Virus record (IMG/VR): IMGVR_UViG_3300031953_000026
Location: 1-49,617 of that record
Strand: one strand, 5' to 3'
DNA: 49,617 nucleotides
DNA from: a virus
Taxonomy: Duplodnaviria; Caudoviricetes
The position numbers were made by a program, and so were the translations under genes. Below the pieces are notes generated by a model that was not told where the DNA came from, did not search any database, and saw nothing but the letters and a program-made list of their open reading frames with translations. Position 1 is the first letter of the stretch. Each line of letters starts with the position of its first letter. Of this stretch, positions 7,120 through 29,958 are shown piece by piece.

Positions 7120-7220
7120 AAGTTGAAGTATATGGATAGGCTTATAATTATAAGTAATATGGTAAATACCCAAAGGAATATTTTCCAGGTCGGCTGTTCT
7201 TTGTCAAAGTAGTTTTTCAT
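7116..7220 (-). CDS. 34-aa single-TM peptide (not in ORF track)
   Basis: MKNYFDKEQPTWKIFLWVFTILLIIISLSIYFNL; its TGA overlaps the next ATG (ATGA). Confidence 0.55.
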   Translation of the reverse strand: MKNYFDKEQPTWKIFLWVFTILLIIISLSIYFNL

Positions 7221-7246: not shown

Positions 7247-8164
7247 TTATATCCAATTGATTGATCTCAGTAAATCATAGGCGGATTCCCCTTTTTGAAG
7301 CATAGCTAAATAACTCCCGTGTTCATTGTCCGACATAGTAGGTTTGAATCCGCCCTTTTGTGCTGTGGTCAAATCCATTTTACGAGGTTGGATGCGTATA
7401 TCAATCATATAAGAATTTGCGATATCATTTGCAAAGGTTTCTTTTACGATGTTCATATCCACTTCCTGTTGTTCTTCTGGCCTGTAATAAAGATAAGTAT
7501 CCAAGAAAGGGGCTGTTTCAAAATATTTTATCCCGTTGATCTGGAACGCCCTTATGTAATCCATTTGAGCAACCGTATTAGCATAGTAAGCGTTCCTTTT
7601 TAAATCCGTGTTATCGCTCTCCCCTTGATGCCTCAATAATACCGCCCTGATTTCCTTGCCGGGGTTTTCAGCTATGATATCGTTTATTGCAGGGGTGGCA
7701 TACGTTTTTAAAAACATATCCAGTAAGTTGTCGCTGTTGTATGCACTCCAGTTTGATGGCCCTGAATACAAAGCAGTACCACCTCTCATTGCTTTAACGT
7801 AATACACTTTGTTTGCCGTGTGCTGTTTTAAGAGAGGGCAAAGGGATATCTCCGCACCAAAAGTCCTATCCGTTGGCGTATATTGCGTGGTGTTCACACC
7901 CGCGCTCATATCTTCCATTACCCCATCGTCCGTGAGGTTCATAATTGGCTTGTTATACATCCTGCAATTTGCGGGGGTTTTGCTATACGCCATCTTTGTT
8001 AATCCCGCAGCGGTTATCTGGTCTGTTGCCACTAACCTGTCGGCTTCTCCCTGTCCCCCGTTGGATTGTGAAAACTCCAATATCACGGGGACAAAATCCG
8101 TCACAACCCCTATCCCGAATTTTTTTAAACTGCTCGCGCCCGCTATGGAAAAGAAACTACACAT
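7247..8164 (-). CDS. SGNH-type sialate O-acetylesterase (SASA/CE6-like), probably tail-associated
   Basis: SQSN, QGESD and DNEH (DxxH) motifs. Confidence 0.8.
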   Translation of the reverse strand: MCSFFSIAGASSLKKFGIGVVTDFVPVILEFSQSNGGQGEADRLVATDQITAAGLTKMAYSKTPANCRMYNKPIMNLTDDGVMEDMSAGVNTTQYTPTDRTFGAEISLCPLLKQHTANKVYYVKAMRGGTALYSGPSNWSAYNSDNLLDMFLKTYATPAINDIIAENPGKEIRAVLLRHQGESDNTDLKRNAYYANTVAQMDYIRAFQINGIKYFETAPFLDTYLYYRPEEQQEVDMNIVKETFANDIANSYMIDIRIQPRKMDLTTAQKGGFKPTMSDNEHGSYLAMLQKGESAYDLLRSINWI

Positions 8165-9026
8165 TGTCTATGATAAATTGTTTCTCAGTTCCTGTAAATA
8201 ACTGAGGATTGATAATCACGTGTTCAAATTCCGCAGAAATATCCGCTACCGTATCAAAACCCGTATTATTCCTACCACCTAAAGCCCATACCGTAGTTGG
8301 ATTGTATGCCGTTATACTTGAAAGCACATCTCCTGTGGATGGGATTTCTGTAACTCCATCGTAGAATTTAACAACCCCTGTTGCCTTGTCTATCTCTATA
8401 AAGAAATCTTTAACAGGGTAAGGACCTGCCCCTGAGAAAACTGCTGCATCAGAAGTATTTACTGCTAATGTAGTAGTCCCCATTTTGGTTAATACCTGTA
8501 ATTTATTGGCTGCGTTTATCGCAGCGACAAAAAAGTGGTTTCCCGAACTTTGTCCAAACATATAACAGTTCGTATCTATCTCTAAAGGCTTCATCCTTAC
8601 GAACACGGAAATCCCATCGGTGGCAGCGTTCAAGAAACTCATTGTACTTCCTAATGAAATTCCATCATTTTCTGCCCGTAGTGTTTTTAGTTTCGTGCCT
8701 GCGATATATTCGGGCGTTCCTGAGGTTATCCCTGTTATATAATTTCCTTTTGCTCCATATTCCCCTGTAAACACACCAACTGTTTTATTGGTGAAGTTGT
8801 ACCATTCTCCTGTGGGTTGGATTTTACTTACCACAGTTGATGTTGCTGCATTAACCGTTATATTTTTAACCGTAGATGTTTGTTTTTCCACCCCATCTAC
8901 AAAACTCTTACAAGTAATTGTGTGCGCTCCTGCGGTTGCACCGTTCCAAGTAAATGGATATGTAGGTGCGACTGTTCCCTCTCCTATCAATGTTCCTTCG
9001 TGGTAATATTTTACTGTTGTTGCCAT
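8157..9026 (-). CDS. Tail accessory / receptor-binding protein: partial Ig-like domain plus LamG/ConA-like domain
   Basis: N-terminal VKYYHEGTLIG...YPFTW...GAHTITCK Ig strands; C-terminal ISVFVRMK...ALGGR LamG-like pattern. Confidence 0.7.
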   Translation of the reverse strand: MATTVKYYHEGTLIGEGTVAPTYPFTWNGATAGAHTITCKSFVDGVEKQTSTVKNITVNAATSTVVSKIQPTGEWYNFTNKTVGVFTGEYGAKGNYITGITSGTPEYIAGTKLKTLRAENDGISLGSTMSFLNAATDGISVFVRMKPLEIDTNCYMFGQSSGNHFFVAAINAANKLQVLTKMGTTTLAVNTSDAAVFSGAGPYPVKDFFIEIDKATGVVKFYDGVTEIPSTGDVLSSITAYNPTTVWALGGRNNTGFDTVADISAEFEHVIINPQLFTGTEKQFIIDNV

Positions 9027-9029
9027 AGT

Positions 9030-11471
9030 TTATAGTGCTGTTATTACTTCTACCCCTGCATCGCTTACAGATATTTTGTATAATGTGCCGTTTGGACTTT
9101 GGCGGATTCCGTATTCTTGAACTAAATCACCCGATAAATATGCAGGGTATGGATTTTGGAAAATAATCCTGAAACTACCCCCTTCTTTTATTCTTGGCAA
9201 CTTTCCTTCTACGGTATCTAATGCCACAAAACCATTTGTCCCATCCCATACAGTGAAGGTTAAATCACCCGTACCACCAAATGAGCATATTATTTCCTCT
9301 CCACCTAAGAATATATTTTGGTTTATCGTAACAAATGGGCTTATTCCTGTGAACATCAACATCTTGCTTTTATCGCTCAAAATCAAAGTATAGGTATTTT
9401 CTGTAATAATTTTAACAGGTCTTGGTACTCCTATATCCGCAACCCATCCTTCATTGGTCAGTTTTTCCCTAACGGTTGCCGTTACTGTTTCAGTAACCGT
9501 AGCGGTTAAATTAATCGGGTCGCCCTCTGTAAATACTTGTCCTTCCGTTGGGGTGTCTAAAGTAACAGGATAGGTCGTAGTTCCCGCAACATTTGGGGCA
9601 GGCACTAAACCGTCAACCGTATTTGTAAAAGGACTGTAAACCGTTGGAATTGGTTTGTTTAAAATAAAAGCATCTGAGGTATTATCGGTAACATTCCAAT
9701 CGGGCTGCACGTTCATTTCTCCTGAGCCCCCTGTTGCGGTGCTTTCTAAAGAACCATTAAAAGAAATAACATCGGTTGCCGTTACGATTCCTCCTAACCA
9801 TCCTTTTAGAATAGTTTTGGGATTGGTTTGTTCTGGATAAGTTCCTGTTACCCCTGTTAAACTCGGTGCTAACTTATTATTCCCTGTGGAAATCATTTGA
9901 AGTTCTCCGTTCAAAGGTGCTACTCCTGCATTTAGAATAATGCTTATTTCCTCGTTTGCATTAGCTGTGAATTGCAATATAAAATCGGTAAAATCGGCTG
10001 CGATTAACGTGTGTTGTGAGGTATTTGCAAGGGGTTTGATAGTTCGGGTGGTGGCTGTTCCTCCGCTTGTTGTAGGTAATAACCGCCTGTTTAAAAATAT
10101 CGTAACATTCACCCCACTTGCAGCCGCTCCCATACTTCCCCAAGCCCCACCGCTCCAAATCTCGATCCCGTCCACCGTGGTTTCAAGGCTCAAATTAACA
10201 ATCCTCATTCCATAGGCTGCGGGTTTCTCCGCTCCAAAATCAAATGCCCTAAAACTCAAATCTGCTTTGGTTGGGTCAAGCTCTGTAAAAGAAACCCGCT
10301 TTATGAATTTATGGCTGCCATCCACCTTTTTTACAACAGCTATTTTTCCGTTGAAAGTAGCATCTAATTTCGCTAAGGCATTGGAATAGTCATTGGCGAT
10401 ATCGGTCAGATAAAACCCGTAATCAGCGGGGATATCCTCATAATCACTTCTATAAATAGCATCGTTAACTGCTGTGTCATCGTAAACGGTATCTGTAAAG
10501 ACTGCGTTAAGTGGAACAGGGGTCAACAAGTCAGCGGCATTGGCAGGGGTGATTCCTAAGGCGGCTATAATCTTCGCAGAGGTCAGGGCATCCAGTTCTT
10601 TTTTAGTCAGCAACGTATAGTCCTCAATAGTTCCGGCAATTGTGCCATCGTAGAAATAATAAGCTTTACCCGCTCCTACATTTGCATCTTCGCTTGCATC
10701 GGTCACTTTTATAACATCGTCTGTAAGTTGTGAGTTTTGATCTGCGAGCATTAAAGTAATCGTGGTGTAGGTGTGATCTACATTGTCGTGGTCTAAGGTG
10801 TCTGCGTAGTCTTTAGCGGCTTGGAGGGTGGCTGTGTCTTGAGAATCTGTATAAACAACAGTGGCTAAGCCGCTTAAATCCTGGTCCCCGGTGTTTGTTC
10901 CTGAAAGGTCGTTTATTTTAGCGGGTATTCCCGATAATGAACCCCAATCAGCCGTAACAGACGGGTTTATTTCGTTATAACTTGAAGTCAAAGACCTGTC
11001 TTCACCATCGTACAAGTAATGAGTAAGCGCAACTCCATCTATGATTATCACATCCCCAATATCGAAAACATAACTGTTTACATTGGTAATAAAATCAGCT
11101 AAAGTAGTTTCAATTGGTTTTATTACATCGGTAATAGAGTACTTTGGGATTTGGCTCACTTCAAGTTTTCCTGTAAGTGGATCTAAATCTGCTTTATTGG
11201 ATAAATCTCCTGTAAAACCTTCAACCGTAGCCTTTAAAGCATCGGTAAATGGGTTCGTGTTTGCGTTGCGCTCATTTGCAGCCTTTACCTCCGCATCGGT
11301 CATGGCTTTGTAAAATGGTAAACTATCCGATCCCTGTGATAAAGATTGCCCAGCATCATTACTGATACCTCCGGCTTGTGGTAATTCATTGATACGGGTG
11401 TTTAAAGCGTTCAGCTTTTCCCCTATCTTGTTTTTAAAACTCTGGAACAATGTTTTTATATCTATTGCCAT
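9030..11471 (-). CDS. Tail fibre protein (mosaic)
   Basis: Fibre motifs KADL..GK...SQIP, NTGDQDLSG, NVQPDW...DAFILNKP and GLVPAP; lies after the baseplate genes. Confidence 0.8.
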   Translation of the reverse strand: MAIDIKTLFQSFKNKIGEKLNALNTRINELPQAGGISNDAGQSLSQGSDSLPFYKAMTDAEVKAANERNANTNPFTDALKATVEGFTGDLSNKADLDPLTGKLEVSQIPKYSITDVIKPIETTLADFITNVNSYVFDIGDVIIIDGVALTHYLYDGEDRSLTSSYNEINPSVTADWGSLSGIPAKINDLSGTNTGDQDLSGLATVVYTDSQDTATLQAAKDYADTLDHDNVDHTYTTITLMLADQNSQLTDDVIKVTDASEDANVGAGKAYYFYDGTIAGTIEDYTLLTKKELDALTSAKIIAALGITPANAADLLTPVPLNAVFTDTVYDDTAVNDAIYRSDYEDIPADYGFYLTDIANDYSNALAKLDATFNGKIAVVKKVDGSHKFIKRVSFTELDPTKADLSFRAFDFGAEKPAAYGMRIVNLSLETTVDGIEIWSGGAWGSMGAAASGVNVTIFLNRRLLPTTSGGTATTRTIKPLANTSQHTLIAADFTDFILQFTANANEEISIILNAGVAPLNGELQMISTGNNKLAPSLTGVTGTYPEQTNPKTILKGWLGGIVTATDVISFNGSLESTATGGSGEMNVQPDWNVTDNTSDAFILNKPIPTVYSPFTNTVDGLVPAPNVAGTTTYPVTLDTPTEGQVFTEGDPINLTATVTETVTATVREKLTNEGWVADIGVPRPVKIITENTYTLILSDKSKMLMFTGISPFVTINQNIFLGGEEIICSFGGTGDLTFTVWDGTNGFVALDTVEGKLPRIKEGGSFRIIFQNPYPAYLSGDLVQEYGIRQSPNGTLYKISVSDAGVEVITAL

Positions 11472-11473
11472 TT

Positions 11474-12475
11474 TTAAAAATTGGTTGCAGTTTCTAATTC
11501 AGCGGCAAGATCCAAATCCCTCAGCGCTTTTATTTCTGATTCCTTTGCGTAAAATGCAGCGGCTTGTCCGTTTAACTTATCGCTATTCGCGGCCTTGAAC
11601 GTGGATTTTCCTTGTATGTAAGAAGCCTGTGTATCATCTGTAACAGATAGATCGCTTTGCGGCCTTGCTTGCAGTTCTATTTGGTTAATCACCTCCGCAA
11701 CTATTTCATCCATATTATACAGCATAACTACCTTTAGTTTTAGATTAATTTCTACCCTGTTCCTCTTTATATCTACTTTGAAACCATCATCTACATAACA
11801 CTGAAATCCGTTTCCATTGTAGACGAAATGCCTTAATCCATCCTTTGCTAATAACCGATTTAAAGCGTTGATTTTGATTGTCATATCTGCCTTAGATGCG
11901 TAGATACCATTGACTTTAACGTTTAATTCCTGCGGGTTTCTGTATAGACTTAACACGTTGCTTTTGTAGGTTGTTTCCTTGCTTGATTTTAGTTTTTCTA
12001 CTTCGTATAAAGTCGCAGTTTCTATCAGCATTCCAAATTGAGCAAAGAAATCATATCCGTCAATCCGTACCGACCCCGAGCCTGAAATTGTCGGTAGCCC
12101 TCCGCTTAAATCCGGGTTTAATTCAATAAACCTTATTTTTAAGGTCTTCCCTCCACGGTAACTTTTAACTACTTTTATTTCGTCTAGTTTCACTTGAAAA
12201 TTCCCATAATTGGTTATCAGGGTTTGGGTGGTGGTAATCGCTTTTAAAGCTTCAGAAGCGGTCTTAAAATCAACCCCTAAGCGTTCGTCAAAAAAGCAAT
12301 CCAGGTTAATATCCCTTTTGCCAAAATAAATATCATCAGCGCTTACTAGTGGCTCTGTGATATCCCCCCAATCATAAGTTGCATCCCCTTGACGTGCTGG
12401 CATATCCAATACCCCGGAAATAAACTGTGGTACTAATCCAAGTGTTCTAAAATCTATGTTATTGAATGTTATCAT
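11474..12475 (-). CDS. Distal-tail-like / minor tail protein
   Basis: Two repeated IDG.DF..FG modules; position in the tail module. Confidence 0.65.
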   Translation of the reverse strand: MITFNNIDFRTLGLVPQFISGVLDMPARQGDATYDWGDITEPLVSADDIYFGKRDINLDCFFDERLGVDFKTASEALKAITTTQTLITNYGNFQVKLDEIKVVKSYRGGKTLKIRFIELNPDLSGGLPTISGSGSVRIDGYDFFAQFGMLIETATLYEVEKLKSSKETTYKSNVLSLYRNPQELNVKVNGIYASKADMTIKINALNRLLAKDGLRHFVYNGNGFQCYVDDGFKVDIKRNRVEINLKLKVVMLYNMDEIVAEVINQIELQARPQSDLSVTDDTQASYIQGKSTFKAANSDKLNGQAAAFYAKESEIKALRDLDLAAELETATNF

Positions 12476-14925
12476 GCGCCTCTGCCTTTATAATTACACA
12501 CCCATTTAAACCCATCAAATATGAAGATCCAACAATCCCCTAAATCAATTTGCTTATGGGTTTCATTTACCCTAAACCTCATTTGTTTGTTATCTGAGGT
12601 AGATACATTTACATCTCCATTGTTTCTCCTTACTTCTATTTTACGCCCTGATGATGGGTTTTTTGGTAATTTTACATTTAATAAAACCGTGTTGTCACAC
12701 GAAATAAACTCATCATAAATTTCACATTGGTAGAATGTAAAGTTTGGAATTACCGTAATCCCTACATTCCTACCAAAAGATTTAAGGCTCCAGAATACAC
12801 CTCCAAAGGCAGGCGCTCCATTATAAGTAGTAGCATTGATTACCCTTCCAACAACCCCGGCAATAAAATTACTGAACAGCCAATTTGCGCCCGATGTCAA
12901 TTTTCCAGCACCTACAGCAACAATAGCACCTACCCCTCTTTTTTGTGCCGTTAATAGTTGTCCGGTATAAGTGTCAACTTCCCCGGTATCTATTCCTGGA
13001 AAATCAGCTTTTACTCCATTGCTTGAAAGTGTGGCACTTGCAGGCTCTTGAAATGAATCCCCTGACCTGGAAGCTGAAATATTTCCGTTTTGGGAATCCA
13101 ATAAGATGATTTGTTTGTATTGTCTATACCCGGCATCCCCGTAAATAGTAATTGGGGAAACCAGTTTTATAATCCCATCCGTTCCGTTCAATTGCGCCCT
13201 TGGTTCTACCTCTGTTTCATCTGTAGATTCATAAACAGCCTGTGATACAATTTGCCCGTTTTGAATGATCCAGTTTCCAATATTGGCATTTTCAGCGAGG
13301 ATGGTTTGGGTTGCGATAATATCAAAACTATCCCCTATCAGTTGCCAGTTGGCCTGAATGAATTCCCCTCGTGTATGATCCGAACCTAGGAAATAATACC
13401 AGAACTTTTTCCCTGATTGGTCTAATAAATAAACATAATCAATCCGGTTTTCGTTGTTGTAGTAATAAGTGGTAGGGCTATGCGCCCCCATATTCACATA
13501 TACGGCCTGTTTGAATTTTATATTGTTGAACACCCGGTTAAACTGCTCATTCCAATAGCGGTTGTTCTGATAGATATTATTCCGTATATCTTTCTGGTTG
13601 TTCATTACCTGTGTAAAATATCCAACCGTTGTTTGATTACCTACATCAATACTGTATTCAAATTCATTGTTTCTTTTTTGAACCAGTGATAATATGCGGG
13701 TTTGGAATTCTACCCCAAAATCATCATCCTGAATAGTGATAACATCCCCTATATTCAAATCGGTATTATTCTGTCTTAAATTAGGGTGATGGGTCGCTAT
13801 CTTATAGATCACATTGGGCTGTGAATATTTATCTATGTACTCGTTTGCCTTTTCCAATAACTCCGCTTCTGCGTTGTCTATGTAGGTTTGAGGCATTTTA
13901 AGATTGATGAATACATAGGTATCTCCTACCCTTGGTTTTAAGATGTCGTTTGGTAGCCTTAAATCGCTATCATCCGTATAAGGTATTAAATCAACCGATT
14001 TTGTGGTGTGGTTGTAATTGGCTATCTCGAATTCACGCCCCGCAAGATCCCCCGTGTTAAAGATTACTTTTGCTTTTGCACCTCCAATTAATTGCTGGTT
14101 AATATCAAAGTCTATCCCGGTATCGGTAAAAATATTGTATTCGGTCAAAGTACTTACATTCCCCCTAAACCTTGGATAGATATCTTCAAAGGTTACGGAT
14201 CGCTCGATAGTGCCGAAAATATCCACGTTCTTTTCAATCTTAGGCAGTTTTAAACGCTTGCTTCCGTATTCGTTTGTGATGTTTCTTTCGCTTCCATACG
14301 CATACAACACGGTTACTAATTCAGCATTAGTCAGGGTTTGGCGCTCTATATCTCTCAACTCTTTTTTATACCTGAAAACAAGGTCTGTTTCAACTCCTAT
14401 CTTTTTCCGAAAAGTTAACATCTTCCCTTTTACAGTAAATTCACAATCAAATTCCCCTGCCAAGCGTTGAAGTGCAGAAAGGCAATTTTCGTTATTGAAA
14501 TTGATGTTTTTAGATTCCGTTTCCTCTACATAATCGGCATAATAAAGTCCATCCGTATACACCCGGTTAAGATTGCTTAAAATACGGCTGACCATATCGA
14601 TAGCATTGCCAAATAAAAAGAATTCAGCCTCATCATCTAACATTACCTGAACGTTCTTTAAGATGTATTGGTCACTCTTAAACTGTAAGTTGTAAGTGAA
14701 CGAGTTTTGGCTCTTTTTGACGTTAGGCTCATCTAAAATGGTGTAGACTGAATCCTTGAATTCCGTAAAATCCCCTATTTGAATATCCAGTTTATCCCCC
14801 TCGGAGGTAAACCGGGACATCATTAAATCTTCACCTGAAATGCTTTGGCGCAATTCGGTTTGGGAATCCACTTCTAAATCGTGGATTATGGTTTTTACTT
14901 CTGCTATGTTTCTGTATATAATCAT
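12472..14925 (-). CDS. Tail tip / Tal-like baseplate hub protein
   Basis: VTVLYAYGSERNI, FEDIYPR and FNTGDLAGREF motifs; immediately follows the TMP gene. Confidence 0.8.
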   Translation of the reverse strand: MIIYRNIAEVKTIIHDLEVDSQTELRQSISGEDLMMSRFTSEGDKLDIQIGDFTEFKDSVYTILDEPNVKKSQNSFTYNLQFKSDQYILKNVQVMLDDEAEFFLFGNAIDMVSRILSNLNRVYTDGLYYADYVEETESKNINFNNENCLSALQRLAGEFDCEFTVKGKMLTFRKKIGVETDLVFRYKKELRDIERQTLTNAELVTVLYAYGSERNITNEYGSKRLKLPKIEKNVDIFGTIERSVTFEDIYPRFRGNVSTLTEYNIFTDTGIDFDINQQLIGGAKAKVIFNTGDLAGREFEIANYNHTTKSVDLIPYTDDSDLRLPNDILKPRVGDTYVFINLKMPQTYIDNAEAELLEKANEYIDKYSQPNVIYKIATHHPNLRQNNTDLNIGDVITIQDDDFGVEFQTRILSLVQKRNNEFEYSIDVGNQTTVGYFTQVMNNQKDIRNNIYQNNRYWNEQFNRVFNNIKFKQAVYVNMGAHSPTTYYYNNENRIDYVYLLDQSGKKFWYYFLGSDHTRGEFIQANWQLIGDSFDIIATQTILAENANIGNWIIQNGQIVSQAVYESTDETEVEPRAQLNGTDGIIKLVSPITIYGDAGYRQYKQIILLDSQNGNISASRSGDSFQEPASATLSSNGVKADFPGIDTGEVDTYTGQLLTAQKRGVGAIVAVGAGKLTSGANWLFSNFIAGVVGRVINATTYNGAPAFGGVFWSLKSFGRNVGITVIPNFTFYQCEIYDEFISCDNTVLLNVKLPKNPSSGRKIEVRRNNGDVNVSTSDNKQMRFRVNETHKQIDLGDCWIFIFDGFKWVCNYKGRGA

Positions 14926-17900
14926 CCTCTTGCTTCAAATTCTAATATTCCACGTTCTACCGTTGCCATCCTACTATCTATGCTTTCTAAATAAATGTTA
15001 TAACTTGTATTGTCGGCTATCTTGCTTAAATAGGTACTGTTCTGGATTGCTATTGTAACCCCTTGTCGTACATCTAAGCGCATTGCGTTTAAATAACCTG
15101 CCAATAGGTCGGCTGTGTCTTCCGTGATATTTGTGATAGCCCCTGATAATCCCGTACGTTCATCCCTTGTATCTCCAAACACATCAAACCCGTTGTTTAC
15201 TGCAATATCTCTGGCATCTTGTAATGACTGATTGAATTCATCTGTTAAACCTTGCGCCTCTTCAAAGAATGCGGCAAAATCATCTTGCCATGTTCCATCC
15301 CCTCCTGAATCAAAAGAGGCTGCCATATTTTCTTGTAATTTTTTGAATTGAGCAGAAAATATTTCATCAAAAATAAGTTGTGCCAACACATCTTGCAACA
15401 CGGTTGAAATGGTATCTCCCATTGCTACTGCGGCATCTTCTCCGGCCTGAAATGCTTCTACTAATGAGTTTCTAAGGTTGTCACCTAATCCCCCTGCAAG
15501 GTCGGAAACAACCCCTGCGATTTGTTCCCGTGCTTTTTCAACCTGTTCCTGCCAGGCTATCGTATCGTTAAGGAGTATTTTTGTAGCATCGTTCACAAGA
15601 TTCTGATCTACTAAAGTTTGTGCCAATTCAACATTTAAAGATCGCACACCGTCTTCTGTGGTTTTTATCAATTCAGGATATTCACCTAACAAATCGGTAA
15701 ACGTATCTTTCTTTTTCTTACCTCCAAACAACCCTACGATTCCCCCTGCAATACCTCCGACTATTCCCCCAACAATAGTTCCAATAACAGGAACAACAGA
15801 ACCTATTGCAGCACCTAAAGCTGCTCCAGACCCAACGCCTGATAAAACACTATTCATATCAACAGCGTTCCTTTGTCCTACCTTCGCTTGTCCGTCTTGT
15901 AGTGCATTGAGACTTTCCGCATAACTTGAATTGGCATCTTTTAAGGCATCGATTCCGCTTTGTATCTTAGATATATAATCAGTTGTAAAAACGTTCTCCG
16001 TGGCGCTTTCCTGTATTCTGATTTGCTCGTTTAAAAGCCTGTTATAATCCTTTTGTTGAGAAATAACAGAATTGTAATAATCGGCCTCTGCGGCTTTTCT
16101 TCTTGCTGCGGAATTGATAATAATATCTGCCAACCCAATAGCCCCGTTAATTCCAGATGTTATTGCTTCATCCGTAGAGGCATCGCCCTTCATCATCTTA
16201 AAGATACCCTCTAATTCGCCCCCAACGTTTTGAAGTCCATCCACTAAATCGGCCATATCCTCAGCCCCTAAATCCCTAAGACTGCCTGATAATTGTCCTA
16301 AATTGGCTGATATTTCTGAAATGTGTTTTTGCCAGATAGCCTGGTTAGCATCTGATATTTTACCGAGTATTTCAGCTTCTTTATCTGATCCTTTTTGAGT
16401 TTCTTCAAGGCGTTTTTTCCAATATGAAATATAATCCCTTAAACTCTCAAAGGTCATTTCTGATAAAGCACGGGTTACATCGCTGTATAAATCTTCTTCC
16501 TGTGTCAGTCCTTTTTGAGCGGCTTCCAGGCGTTTTTCCCACATTTTTATAGGTCCTTCTAAAGAGCCTCTATCTTCTTTACTCGCTTCTTTAAAACGTT
16601 GTCTTAAATCATCTAAGGTGCTTTCTATAAATTTTATAGAACTTGTATTTACCTCAAAATCTATAACGATTGGCGCTGTGGTAAGGCTTCCAACACTACT
16701 GACCTTATCCCTTCCTTTTAAATCCAATCCCGCTGATTCTGCGGCTGCGGCTATCGCTTGTTGGCGTGCTGCGGATGTGGTTTCTTGTAATTGTTTTTGC
16801 AGGAATTGACTGTAAGTTGTACCTAATTTCATCAGGTCGGCAAATTGCGATTGTGCTGCGGCTTGCCCGATTTGGTTTACTACTGCCTGATAGGCTTCAT
16901 ATTGCTTTTTGCGATCATCTAAAGATTTGGCATAAACATCTTTATCTGGAACCCCGGCTGATCCACTTCCTCCTTTTGTGTTTAATTGCCTAAAGCGTTC
17001 CTGAGCGTATTTTTTTATTTCCTCCAGCTCACTATCTAAAAATGGTTTTAAAGATTCTAAATTATCAGTTTGGTTTATTTGTGTGAGTTGGTCAATTATC
17101 TTGCCCCGTGCCGTAATAGCATCTTCAATCTCTTTTATCCCTGACCCTGTATAAGTGGTTAGGTCGGATGCGCTCATTGCAGCATTTATCTGCTTTATTG
17201 CCTCAATTCTTCCGGCTGTGGTTTTTAATTCTGATTGTGATAACCTCCTATTTTTTGAGGTCATATTATCAACCAATAAGGTTTGTGCTTCCAGTTCTGT
17301 ATTTAAAAGGGCTTGTTTCCCTACACTCTGAGAAAGTGCGCTTAAATATTCAGTAGCAAATCCCTTTAAAACGTTTTTATATTTATCTCCTGAGTTTAAT
17401 GTCCTATCAAAAGCACCTTCAACACCTGTAAGTTGTGCTTTTACAGAATTCAGGATTTCATCATCATTTGCCTGATAATCTATTTGAAGTTCAATCCCAT
17501 TATCCTTGGCGACTACTTCTAATTCTGCTAAAGATTGCGCAAATTTATCTTTATAGTCGTCTATGTTTATTTCTATTTGCCCTTGTTCTCCTAAAGCGGC
17601 TTTTAAATCTTCCTGCCTCTGTTCAAATTTATAACGTTGTATGTACGCCTCATTAACCTGATTCAATACATTTAAAAGATCCTGAGTACTGGCAGTTTCA
17701 GATTCAATCCCTCTTATAAAATCAGGGTAATTCTTTAGTATTTCGTTTTTGATCCGGTTGTACTCAGCGCTCCCCTCAGCAACACTTAAAAGTTCACCTC
17801 TTAATTTTGCAAGTTCAACCCGCTGCTCGTTAAAACTTTTCTTTAACTGTTCGCTATCTTCTAAAGCACCATTTAAAAAACGTGCAATCCCACTACTTGC

Positions 17901-18917
17901 CTGTAATACTGAATTCCCTATTTCCTCCGTAGTGGCTTTAATCCTGTTCCCTAAGATAGCCCACTCATTCGCATTAGAGCCTGCCATAGATTTAAACGCC
18001 TTGTCCGCTGCCCCGGCAGAATCTCCTAACTGTTCCAGGTCTTTTGCTGCACTTGCGGCATTAGGTCCGGCAATACCAAGAATGGCGCTCATCGCCTCCA
18101 TCCGTCCGGTAAGTTTCTTTAATTCGGTTTGACTTCCTCCCGCCTTGTCATAGATGGCTTGAAAGGCGTTTTGCAAGGTCATAGATTTGGCTGCACCGTC
18201 ACCCAATACTTCTGAGACTGATTCTATCCCTGAGCGTATTTGAGTCATTGCCTGAGCAGTTGGCACACCTTGCTTTGTCAGGGATGCAACGGCTGCCAAA
18301 AGTTCCTGATATGAGAACCCGGTGGCGGCTGCAAGCGGTGCTGCCTGTGATAGCGTGGATGATAACTGCTCAAAGGTGGTCTTACCTAACTTAACGGTGG
18401 TGAACATCGCATCGGCTACCTGATCGGCTTCCTCAGCACTTAATTTAAAAGCGTTTAAAGTAGTAGTAATCCCATCGGCTGCGGTCTCCGTAGATGTCAC
18501 CCCTGCGGTTGCGGCTTTGGATGCCGTTTCAAGTAATCGCATTCCGGCTGCACCATCATAACCCGCTGAAACTATCTGGTAATATGCCTTGGCTAACTTG
18601 GCAGGTCCATCGGGTGAATTCTTGGAAAGTGCGAACACCTCCGCTGATATGCCTTTAAAGTTTTTTTGGGTGGCATCTGAAATAGTTTCCACCTCCTTCA
18701 TTGCGGTCTCGAATTCCCGCATCATTTTGAATGCTGAATTTGCGATTGTGGCAAAGGCTGCGGCTGCACCTATGGAAAGGGCAAGGAAAGGGTTTATTCC
18801 CGCTATAGATTGACCTAACTGAGAAACGATCCCAACGGCATCTTTAGCGCCTGATTGCAGGCCGCTGTTATCCATTCCCGTTGCGAAATACAATGAATTA
18901 TCTCCCTTTACAGCCAT
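14922..18917 (-). CDS. Tail tape measure protein (TP901-type core)
   Basis: 1331 aa, Ala-rich helical; TVKLGKTTFEQL core motif; Gly-rich TM segment. Confidence 0.92.
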   Translation of the reverse strand: MAVKGDNSLYFATGMDNSGLQSGAKDAVGIVSQLGQSIAGINPFLALSIGAAAAFATIANSAFKMMREFETAMKEVETISDATQKNFKGISAEVFALSKNSPDGPAKLAKAYYQIVSAGYDGAAGMRLLETASKAATAGVTSTETAADGITTTLNAFKLSAEEADQVADAMFTTVKLGKTTFEQLSSTLSQAAPLAAATGFSYQELLAAVASLTKQGVPTAQAMTQIRSGIESVSEVLGDGAAKSMTLQNAFQAIYDKAGGSQTELKKLTGRMEAMSAILGIAGPNAASAAKDLEQLGDSAGAADKAFKSMAGSNANEWAILGNRIKATTEEIGNSVLQASSGIARFLNGALEDSEQLKKSFNEQRVELAKLRGELLSVAEGSAEYNRIKNEILKNYPDFIRGIESETASTQDLLNVLNQVNEAYIQRYKFEQRQEDLKAALGEQGQIEINIDDYKDKFAQSLAELEVVAKDNGIELQIDYQANDDEILNSVKAQLTGVEGAFDRTLNSGDKYKNVLKGFATEYLSALSQSVGKQALLNTELEAQTLLVDNMTSKNRRLSQSELKTTAGRIEAIKQINAAMSASDLTTYTGSGIKEIEDAITARGKIIDQLTQINQTDNLESLKPFLDSELEEIKKYAQERFRQLNTKGGSGSAGVPDKDVYAKSLDDRKKQYEAYQAVVNQIGQAAAQSQFADLMKLGTTYSQFLQKQLQETTSAARQQAIAAAAESAGLDLKGRDKVSSVGSLTTAPIVIDFEVNTSSIKFIESTLDDLRQRFKEASKEDRGSLEGPIKMWEKRLEAAQKGLTQEEDLYSDVTRALSEMTFESLRDYISYWKKRLEETQKGSDKEAEILGKISDANQAIWQKHISEISANLGQLSGSLRDLGAEDMADLVDGLQNVGGELEGIFKMMKGDASTDEAITSGINGAIGLADIIINSAARRKAAEADYYNSVISQQKDYNRLLNEQIRIQESATENVFTTDYISKIQSGIDALKDANSSYAESLNALQDGQAKVGQRNAVDMNSVLSGVGSGAALGAAIGSVVPVIGTIVGGIVGGIAGGIVGLFGGKKKKDTFTDLLGEYPELIKTTEDGVRSLNVELAQTLVDQNLVNDATKILLNDTIAWQEQVEKAREQIAGVVSDLAGGLGDNLRNSLVEAFQAGEDAAVAMGDTISTVLQDVLAQLIFDEIFSAQFKKLQENMAASFDSGGDGTWQDDFAAFFEEAQGLTDEFNQSLQDARDIAVNNGFDVFGDTRDERTGLSGAITNITEDTADLLAGYLNAMRLDVRQGVTIAIQNSTYLSKIADNTSYNIYLESIDSRMATVERGILEFEARG

Positions 18918-28152: not shown

Positions 28153-29958
28153 TTATTTAAACCTACTTAGAAATTCTATATATCCTGATTCAGAATATTG
28201 AATAGTTCCTTTTATCAATTGCCTTGCTTGTTGTTTTCCTATTTTTACCTTTGAATGTTTCCTAATCGCATTTATTAAACCCTCTACCTGAGTATCATAT
28301 CTTTCATTGATTAGGTAGGTTTCAACGTCTTTTAATACCAAAGATTTATCTGCCTTTGAAATTTCTATAAGTTTATCAAAGTTTCTGACCATTGTATTAT
28401 AACCCGTGTTTGGCCTATCCAACATTAACCCCCTGTTTTCTAATTTACCACCAAGGCGCTCCATAAATTCAGGTAAACGGTTACGGGAAACAAACTCATT
28501 TGAAAGTTCCATATACCTTGTTTGGAGTTTTGTTATCCTGATATTCCCAATCTTATTGGCATTATGCATAATCTCATGATGGAATGTTGACATACCAACT
28601 TCCTGATTATATGTTGTTGGAACACCTCTTTTGATGTTGTTTATTCCTGAAATCACCTGATCTGCAATATCTTTTTTGAGATAAATATCCCCTCTTAATG
28701 TGGTAAACCCATTAACCCCTGCACGTCTTGTTGTTGCTACTTCTTTAAAACCACGTGCAAAATATGAAGGATTGGATGTTGCAAAATCAGCTACAGCCCC
28801 GTTTAACCCCTTCATATCTGTTATATCAATGATATTGATTTTCTTAGGGATCGGGATTGTTTTCTTAACAGGTGTTTTAACCACAGGCGCAACCTTTGGA
28901 ACAGTCTTAACAACACTTGGCGCTATTCCCGGTATTTTAGTCTTTGGATTGAACACGAATTCACTCCCTACATTCTTGAAATTGTCTTTTAGAAAATACG
29001 GTGTGTTTTTATAACTCCGCAGCTTATCAGAATTCGCATTTAGATAATCGGTTGCCGTTTTTGGAACGGTTCTTATTTGATGCCGTCCGTCTATTTTCCC
29101 GCCTCCCAAATACTCCTTGAATTTATCCCTTGGCAATAACAGGGATTCAGAAAAACACAAACAGTTTGGATGCCAGCCCGTAAATAAGAAGTTCTTAGGG
29201 TATGTTCCTACAAGTTCATCACAAATATCATAAGCAGGATGGCTCCCTGATAATTTAACCGTTTGACCTGTTACAAAAGGCATATCCTGCCTCCTGTTAA
29301 AGTCATTGGTTCTATATGCGATATTGATTTCATTCCGGCTTAACCTAAGTGCGTTTTTATAACTGGACCTGTAAATACCTTTGCCGGGATGGTAATTCTT
29401 AGCGGGGTTTGATAACATCAACTTGCCATCTGAATTACGCACCCTTCTAAAATTCCTATCAGGCTCTTTGAGGTACTTCTTTAAATCGGTTGCAGTTTCT
29501 GAGGCGCTGCGTCCGCTTAATATTCCGGACTGCATAACGCTTTCCATACTTTCCTTAGCTTGGTTAGTCAATCCCCAAACCCGATCACTTAAATTAAGCC
29601 CTGCGGCTTTTCGACTGAGGAAAGAAGCAACCGCTCCATCATTGGTCTTTAGGAATTTGTTCAACTGGCCGCTTTTCAGGTCCATTCCCTTAACATACTT
29701 GTTTACAAGCTCATCATTTCCTGTATTGGATATGCCAAAACTATTCGTGATTTGTTGTTGCAGGGTGCGTTCCATATCCCCGTTAAAGTCCAACATTGCC
29801 CTCTCAAACTGCCTGGTTTTATCGGGTGATAGTATTCCTGTGGAGTTCCCTTTGAGTATATGACCAAATATAAAAGAATACCGACTATACAGTCTGTCCA
29901 AGTGCCATTCCTGAGCGTGGAGAAGGGATAATAAGCGGTTTTCAGATGGGTTTGGCAT
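28153..29958 (-). CDS. MuF/SPP1 gp7-like minor head protein with C-terminal HExxH extension
   Basis: LSDRVW, RLSRNEINIAY and CDEL...WHPNCLC MuF motifs; Pro/Val/Lys linker; HHEIMH. Confidence 0.85.
   Translation of the reverse strand: MPNPSENRLLSLLHAQEWHLDRLYSRYSFIFGHILKGNSTGILSPDKTRQFERAMLDFNGDMERTLQQQITNSFGISNTGNDELVNKYVKGMDLKSGQLNKFLKTNDGAVASFLSRKAAGLNLSDRVWGLTNQAKESMESVMQSGILSGRSASETATDLKKYLKEPDRNFRRVRNSDGKLMLSNPAKNYHPGKGIYRSSYKNALRLSRNEINIAYRTNDFNRRQDMPFVTGQTVKLSGSHPAYDICDELVGTYPKNFLFTGWHPNCLCFSESLLLPRDKFKEYLGGGKIDGRHQIRTVPKTATDYLNANSDKLRSYKNTPYFLKDNFKNVGSEFVFNPKTKIPGIAPSVVKTVPKVAPVVKTPVKKTIPIPKKINIIDITDMKGLNGAVADFATSNPSYFARGFKEVATTRRAGVNGFTTLRGDIYLKKDIADQVISGINNIKRGVPTTYNQEVGMSTFHHEIMHNANKIGNIRITKLQTRYMELSNEFVSRNRLPEFMERLGGKLENRGLMLDRPNTGYNTMVRNFDKLIEISKADKSLVLKDVETYLINERYDTQVEGLINAIRKHSKVKIGKQQARQLIKGTIQYSESGYIEFLSRFK

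Follow-up and report, generated by a model that had tools for sequence, protein, structure and literature searches.

Two adjacent genes on the minus strand of a phage genome, which between them encode the pieces of one immunoglobulin-like (Ig) domain, were analysed in the virus record IMGVR_UViG_3300031953_000026. The window, that is the whole record of 49,617 nucleotides (nt), is present in brine metagenomes (13 runs are listed, four of them possibly its source), and PHROGs matches identified genes for terminase, portal, major head, tape measure and endolysin. The first gene (9030-11471, minus strand) is an open reading frame (ORF) for a fibre-type protein of 813 amino acids (aa), classified as such by gene order, being the first gene past the Tal-like and Dit-like genes, and by the likeness of its C-terminal fold to phage fibre and spike proteins. 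The gene after it, ORF2 (8157-9026, minus strand), codes for 289 aa. At the junction (9024-9032, minus strand) the sequence reads TAA-ACT-ATG, and both genes are in the same frame. There is an A at position -3 of the ORF2 start, as in 12 of the 21 starts listed.

Both proteins matched the Pfam family Big_7 (PF17957), each with a different part of the profile. Fibre residues 636-663 corresponded to profile positions 3-30 (E 4.6e-4 with an 81-aa fragment, 0.024 with the whole protein), and ORF2 residues 3-38 to positions 33-69 (E 2.4e-4 with an 80-aa fragment); whole ORF2 run against Pfam did not match Big_7. The scores of the fragments (21.2 and 22.1 bits) and those of a six-frame search (23.2 and 20.2 bits) were all below the Big_7 gathering score of 24.1 bits, as is expected of halves. 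Only when both genes are counted are the strand-forming positions of the family complete (3-30 plus 33-69 of 70). The six-frame search of the whole 49.6-kb record returned exactly two matches (E 5.1e-6 and 4.2e-5), located in adjacent genes. The same division was obtained with a custom profile of 95 positions made from 90 intact domains out of 30 bacterial genome loci: fibre residues 635-662 matched positions 7-34 and ORF2 residues 3-59 positions 39-94, with no overlap and with 84 of the 95 positions covered. The sole gap between the halves, positions 35-38, is the B-C turn; the strand names (A, A' and B for the fibre piece, C to G for the ORF2 piece) follow the established Ig fold. In a PDB sequence search the profile of the ORF2 piece matched residues 38-92 of the bacterial Ig domain 9KVU (E 8.5e-4), and both half profiles weakly matched the solved chain 3PDG (residues 2-36 and 33-69, E 0.14 each). 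By these profile matches one Big_7-type Ig domain is encoded as two complementary pieces, split at the B-C turn. An initial annotation had already proposed that the fibre piece and the start of the next gene are complementary Ig halves, and the peptides quoted there are present in the sequence. The fibre segment that it gave, 9471-9572, has to be narrowed: the quoted peptide of 26 residues is real and occupies 9495-9572 (minus strand), the remainder being the 8-residue return linker.

The fibre piece interrupts a fibre motif of 21 residues. The front half of the motif, GLVPAPN (residues 621-627; 9591-9611, minus strand; mean pairwise identity 0.84 in 17 aligned fibres), precedes the inserted first third of the domain (strands A, A' and B; residues 634-663; 9483-9572, minus strand), which was identified by Pfam, the intact profile and a conserved core and will be called the predicted socket. 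A variable return linker (9471-9482, minus strand; mean pairwise identity 0.22 at alignment positions 53-60) leads to the back half of the motif, K.L..xGW (residues 668-676; 9444-9470, minus strand), whose W is invariant in 17 of 17 aligned fibres. The insert amounts to 35 residues. From motif start to motif W there are 56 residues here and 52-66 in 17 relatives, as against 21 in three uninterrupted copies (the first copy of P0005, P0030 and P0069), in agreement with the insertion that the initial annotation had described; a fourth uninterrupted copy (P0013) has 25. Uninterrupted and interrupted copies occur within one chain in P0005. The C-terminal beta domain of the fibre with its terminal SPNG hairpin occupies 9033-9416 (minus strand).

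A full HMMER search with the last 223 residues of the fibre gave 68 proteins, a word search added P0004, and 75 proteins were gathered in all. The insert was carried by 21 of them; after P0006 (a frameshifted fragment of this phage) and the cluster mates P0072 (WP_299153046.1) and P0074 were dropped, 18 remained, including the window's own. The conservation counts refer to 17 of these, P0042 (WP_240714473.1, Christiangramia lutea) having been recognised later, outside the alignment. Since the 18 fibres are probably of one origin, their number measures persistence and not independent inventions. Five positions (Y26, P33, G36, T40 and G42) are invariant in all 17 aligned fibres. Inward-facing positions are hydrophobic (L30, F39 and L47 in 17/17 each, A49 in 15/17), V28 (9/17) and I45 (11/17) being less uniform, and the outward-facing ones are hydrophobic in 2/17 (N46) or 0/17 (T48 and T50) of the proteins. 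Mean identity was 0.52 in the Ig insert versus 0.22 in the adjoining return linker. None of the 18 insert-bearing fibres has a second Ig half in cis: their best scores on the intact profile, on the first third, range from 0.8 to 9.6 bits, versus about 41 for the second half. The fibre ends vary, with an SPNG-type tail in 12 of 19 proteins (the 18 and P0028) and other ends in seven. P0028, from a 16.9-kb Logan contig, has a different beta insert of 24 residues at the same place of the motif (residues 232-276); in Pfam it matched only StcE_b-sandwich (E 0.016), and by its pattern it looks like the two opening strands of an FN3 domain. Another part of the fibre, the domain at about residues 476-582 (9726-10046, minus strand), is 89% identical in P0015 and about 40-50% identical in most socket-bearing fibres, which by sequence comparison shows recent domain shuffling among these fibres.

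The predicted plug, with strands C to G the other two thirds of the Ig domain, lies at the very start of ORF2 (residues 3-59; 8850-9020, minus strand; 40.7 bits on the intact profile). The ORF2 head (8160-8834, minus strand) is predicted to be a LamG/ConA-like jelly roll that binds carbohydrate, on the basis of Pfam Laminin_G_3 (E 0.011) and of ESM Atlas, in which it resembled LamG clusters with a feature score of 0.97 and template modelling (TM) scores of 0.67-0.79. A word-index search with ORF2 residues 1-62, covering 221 candidates with lengths of 158-506 only, found one further protein with a plug, P0073 (320 aa, on a 40.9-kb contig). P0073 has the same start as ORF2, MATTVKYY, is 58% identical to it over 64 residues (65% over 49 aa) and covers the same positions, 39-94, of the intact profile. 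Past the first 60 residues BLASTP detected no shared sequence between the two. In P0073 the payload is AbfB-catalytic-like (E 2.8e-6), and the phage proteins that it matches carry annotations as virion structural or minor tail proteins. The same plug thus carries two different heads. This is the one direct piece of evidence, from two sequences, for the plug-in exchange of receptor modules suggested in the initial annotation.

In an AlphaFold2 (AF2) model of the last 223 fibre residues, made from an alignment of 25 rows (mean predicted local distance difference test score, pLDDT, 78.9), the C-terminal domain and the terminal hairpin were predicted at high confidence (pLDDT 76-98 per block of ten), and the insert had no strand pairing (block pLDDT 58-78). 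A single-sequence AF2 model of ORF2 was uninformative (mean pLDDT 34.7). As to the possibility that each segment folds independently, which the initial annotation had named as fatal to a joint, the unpaired insert of the monomer fibre model speaks against it on the fibre side, and on the plug side the ESM Atlas result described below counts as neutral or slightly unfavourable. The best fold matches of the C-terminal part of the fibre in the PDB were the Pa223 capsid spike 9NY6 (E 2.9e-4) and the CBA120 tailspike TSP4 7RFO (E 6.5e-4), with TM scores of 0.3-0.4. The TSP4 match, to residues 1-335, was weak (TM 0.32); this region of TSP4 holds gp10-like domains, and a T4 gp10-like domain is the branching element of branched receptor-binding-protein systems.

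The best-supported explanation is complementation in trans, as the initial annotation had predicted: an Ig joint formed by two proteins probably attaches the predicted lectin head sideways to the fibre. This reading is favoured because the halves are complementary, their core face is conserved in 17 fibres, a second half is absent in cis, the insert is unpaired in the fibre model and a second plug protein exists. The fibre insert would loop out and fold with the start of ORF2 into one beta-sandwich, whereby the two proteins would bind and the head would be attached by the rebuilt Ig domain. In an Ig fold, strands A and B run antiparallel to each other, and both ends of an A-A'-B piece are therefore at the same pole, which makes the piece suitable for an internal loop; leaving the fibre and returning to it should be feasible. 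The plug would begin at the pole of the socket ends and its last strand would leave at the far pole, so that the head would point away from the fibre. That its fold matches spike and tailspike proteins makes it probable that the fibre is trimeric, and up to three sockets and heads might be present. With 3 nt separating the stop from the next start, the fibre and ORF2 would be translated in a coupled manner. Recombination behind the plug would exchange heads and leave the fibre untouched.

Several observations weigh against this explanation. The first-third scores of the individual proteins are weak, and 10 of 17 match Big_7 at E values up to 10. One other plug-first protein, from the restricted word search, stands against 17 other socket fibres from the full HMMER search. 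ESM Atlas gives ORF2 residues 1-64 an Ig-like shape without a partner (TM 0.70-0.79, depending on the query), so a free plug, single or as a homodimer, might be stable. The AF2 fibre model, being a monomer, leaves room for pairing of the three inserts within a trimer. The shared frame across TAA-ACT-ATG would suit a single long chain.

Finally, a second locus with both genes was not found by any search route. In scans of viral contigs there were two relatives, L092 and L093, with 80% and 72% identity in Tal, both of which diverge directly after Tal (L092 13452-15101, L093 12451-15228) and either end before the insert or have other genes after Tal: L092 shares the first 314 residues of the fibre (54%) and then switches domain, and L093 has unrelated genes. 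Apart from short repeat matches, a metagenome scan recovered nothing but the contig of the window itself. Pattern scans of genome contigs found no second locus with a pattern that fits 11 of the 18 insert-bearing proteins and misses P0042. The insert profile had four, no and three weak matches in 401, 8 and 401 genomes, respectively, and six of the seven inspected were intact domains. P0042 run against 331 genomes gave no second locus, and among the matches listed for the plug profile in 401 genomes all were in frames of at least 411 aa. Judging from GldC sequence types, the samples of the P0042 search, the plug-profile search and the first two insert-profile searches (401 and 8 genomes) were presumably not Flavobacteriaceae. 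In 86 domain matches over all loci fetched, the sole plug at a gene start was the window's own copy, and the cultured phages and plasmids yielded no second locus either.

Of the other explanations the one that survives best, though we think it unlikely, is that the halves share an Ig origin and act apart: the inserts would pair with each other inside the fibre trimer, or else with some other protein of the virion, and the start of ORF2 would fold alone or as a homodimer and attach elsewhere. The partner-free ESM Atlas model and the single additional plug-first protein would be accommodated, as would the strand-like, T/V-rich return linker, which could add a strand to the insert. However, the pieces are exactly complementary and adjacent in a record without any other Big_7 half, both have kept family-typical core residues, and the plug start is conserved in front of a different payload.

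That the single in-frame TAA is occasionally read through is improbable. The product would be a continuous polypeptide, its two Ig pieces closing up in cis around the C-terminal domain of 150 residues. The six-frame search match does run across the TAA, but a shared frame has a prior of one in three, TAA is the least leaky stop codon, the chain stops at the same SPNG-type tail in 12 of 19 related fibres, and P0073, whose start is identical, was called as a protein of its own. Lower still is the probability of a non-functional relic, namely halves in decay after an ancestral fibre-Ig-LamG gene had taken up a fibre segment. The low and variable first-third scores (0.8-9.6 bits) are what decay would give, but the five invariant positions, the intact in/out pattern over 17 proteins, the identity of 52% in the insert against 22% in the linker and the conserved plug start of P0073 are hard to reconcile with it.

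The least probable is the alternative offered in the initial annotation, a deletion in the DNA. Short repeats would recombine with the loss of about 455-470 nt, and some members of the population would then have the halves fused. Three microhomologies of 6-8 nt are indeed in frame (8 nt at 9489/9018, 6 nt at 9480/9024 and 6 nt at 9452/8999), but their lengths are close to what chance gives, matches of at least 8 nt occurring in 92 and of at least 6 nt in 639 of up to 1000 draws of random same-sized pairs of this region (frame not required). The fused joint was not seen in contigs, which were compared for 8 of the 13 listed runs, and such a deletion would cost the fibre the back half of its motif, which is kept in 18 of 18 insert fibres. 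Contigs drop rare variants, which limits that comparison. No longer DNA repeats flanking the segment stood out. A hairpin at 9470-9508 was considered as a bypass or recombination signal and rejected (z = -0.97 versus shuffles), the T/V codons being self-complementary.

The split arrangement is not an assembly artefact: contigs of runs X1 and X3, possible sources of the window, span it, and X5 record 15 (covering 8764-9687) and X7 record 19 (covering 8943-9300), from runs not marked as sources, show no differences. A loss of one base at 9467 in run X6, together with the 85-aa protein P0006, was taken as a homopolymer error, X6 having five such single-base indels. A record of 49,561 nt of the same phage lacks 35 nt in the terminal hairpin of the fibre (9052-9086, minus strand), out of frame; this loss after position 9087 results in a frameshifted fibre of 842 aa (P0077) and does not join the halves. 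In that record the ORF2 gene call (P0001) starts at residue 46, by which most of the plug is lost. No step at the insert was found in the GC profile, and promoter and terminator scans were at or below chance level.

The initial annotation had likened the proposed joint to pilus donor-strand complementation. In chaperone-usher pili of the FimA/PapA type an Ig-like fold is completed by a segment of another chain, and adhesin is thereby joined to shaft; this much is shared. In the pili one strand (G) comes from an N-terminal extension, a chaperone and an usher are needed, and the subunits polymerise. Here, in contrast, an internal loop would supply about three strand elements, a third of the domain, and with the break at the B-C turn the last strand stays on the plug with C to F. 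The whole record has one socket and one plug, and since neither protein carries both, a polymer is impossible. Chaperone or usher genes were not present among the ORFs scanned, most ORFs of the record lying outside that scan. The likeness therefore holds for an Ig domain completed in trans and is loose otherwise; the proposed joint is not pilus-type donor-strand exchange, and Tuc2009 is a closer parallel.

In the adhesion device of phage Tuc2009, according to the accessible parts of the report, a 25-residue hairpin of BppU completes a sheet of BppA domain 2 in the crystal structure, and the composite resembles a titin Ig domain (PMC4742702). As would be the case here, a tail structural protein supplies a short beta element that completes the Ig-like sandwich of a carbohydrate-binding accessory protein (PMC4742702, same parts); the accepting protein of the window has a LamG/ConA-like fold with predicted sugar binding. 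In Tuc2009 the donor is a C-terminal extension and the acceptor a C-terminal domain of the accessory protein (PMC4742702, same parts), whereas here an internal stretch is the donor (residues 634-663 of 813, 150 residues ahead of the C-terminus), the acceptor is N-terminal (3-59 of 289) and the donated piece is the first third of a Big_7-type domain. No homology between this locus and BppU-BppA was found in Pfam, PHROG and PDB sequence scans. By analogy, the joint most likely works like that of Tuc2009 without being a member of it by position or homology. Two studies of lactococcal and streptococcal adhesion devices with AlphaFold refer, in the portions available, to BppA and to half-FN3-like modules of three strands, and not to an internal socket (PMC9692632, PMC9437275). 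In the Klebsiella phages KP32, K11 and KP34, as far as the accessible text of the report goes, a folded branching domain on the primary fibre or spike binds a short conserved peptide (PMC13352976). The conserved N-terminal docking segment in front of an exchangeable payload is a common feature of these branched receptor-binding proteins (PMC13352976, same text) and of the present locus, although here there would be two incomplete halves of one Ig domain, and no depolymerase tailspike is evident here. A conserved docking start with a variable payload was seen in two proteins only, ORF2 and P0073. As to Big_7 itself (PF17957; 9KVU and 3PDG/3PDD by sequence match), both halves carry the family pattern; intact domains stand in tandem in one chain of secreted bacterial proteins (six of the seven genome loci inspected were intact), whereas here the halves are on two genes and lack the B-C turn. 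In the literature searched, the main text of mostly open-access papers, nothing was found that describes a fibre with an internal half-Ig socket. The principle of a split-Ig joint is already known from Tuc2009, and the new element here would be the internal-loop socket inside the fibre motif.

If the joint is real, a loop of only 35 residues is needed to branch a fibre, and the conservation of an apparently broken Ig fragment is explained. Receptor modules of uncultured Bacteroidota phages could then be assigned to their fibres from sequence, with the reservation that gene callers can cut plugs off, as in the database record mentioned above. The pair would also be a compact natural split domain with an internal-loop donor, unlike terminal tag systems. 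A wider generalization is possible, if somewhat doubtful: Bacteroidota phages may use half-Ig loops at one fixed site of the fibre motif as standard side sockets, onto which head proteins with the matching half snap, different half-folds (Big_7 in 18 fibres, the 24-residue insert of P0028) being orthogonal pairs that permit natural plug-in swapping of the heads for host recognition along the shaft.

Upstream of the fibre gene are a Dit-like gene (11474-12475; weak match to Pfam Sipho_tail, E 0.051), a Tal-like gene (12472-14925; Pfam Prophage_tail, E 1.6e-17) and the tape measure gene (14922-18917; PHROGs match). The fibre begins with an amphipathic helix-like segment (11380-11471, minus strand), also found in P0005 and L092 (13400-13550). 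The end of the adjoining Dit-like gene (11474-11530, minus strand) reads ...DLAAELETATNF; the Dit end and the fibre start may be a pair of motifs for a helical joint. Two relatives of the fibre are named from Christiangramia, and the host is therefore likely to belong to the Flavobacteriaceae.

On the other side, ORF2 overlaps by 8 nt a gene for a SASA-type esterase (7247-8164, minus strand; Pfam SASA E 4.6e-4), possibly a third part of the module; the esterase had no matches in 50,697 phage records. At the overlap (8157-8167, minus strand) ORF2 ends with ...KQFIIDNV and the esterase starts with MCSFFSI in the +1 frame. P0073 ends with a helix that looks similar by eye (...IQNNMNSFY), in a region that BLASTP left unaligned. 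An old frameshift or a programmed shift may have divided the final lectin-domain helix between the ORF2 and esterase genes; no indel was present at the overlap in the contigs X5 record 14 and X8 record 26.

Elsewhere in the record, a head morphogenesis (MuF-like) protein of 601 aa (28153-29958, minus strand) has a C-terminal extension. A PHROG labelled Bxa ADP-ribosyl transferase matches this protein at residues 186-330, within the head-morphogenesis region, and the label may not apply; Pfam gave no match. Beyond the 3' end of the esterase gene, an intergenic stretch of 65 nt (7155-7220) recurs at about 90% in contigs of far greater depth (up to about 1,200) in eight of the eight runs compared, which identifies it as a repeated or conserved element of other brine DNA.

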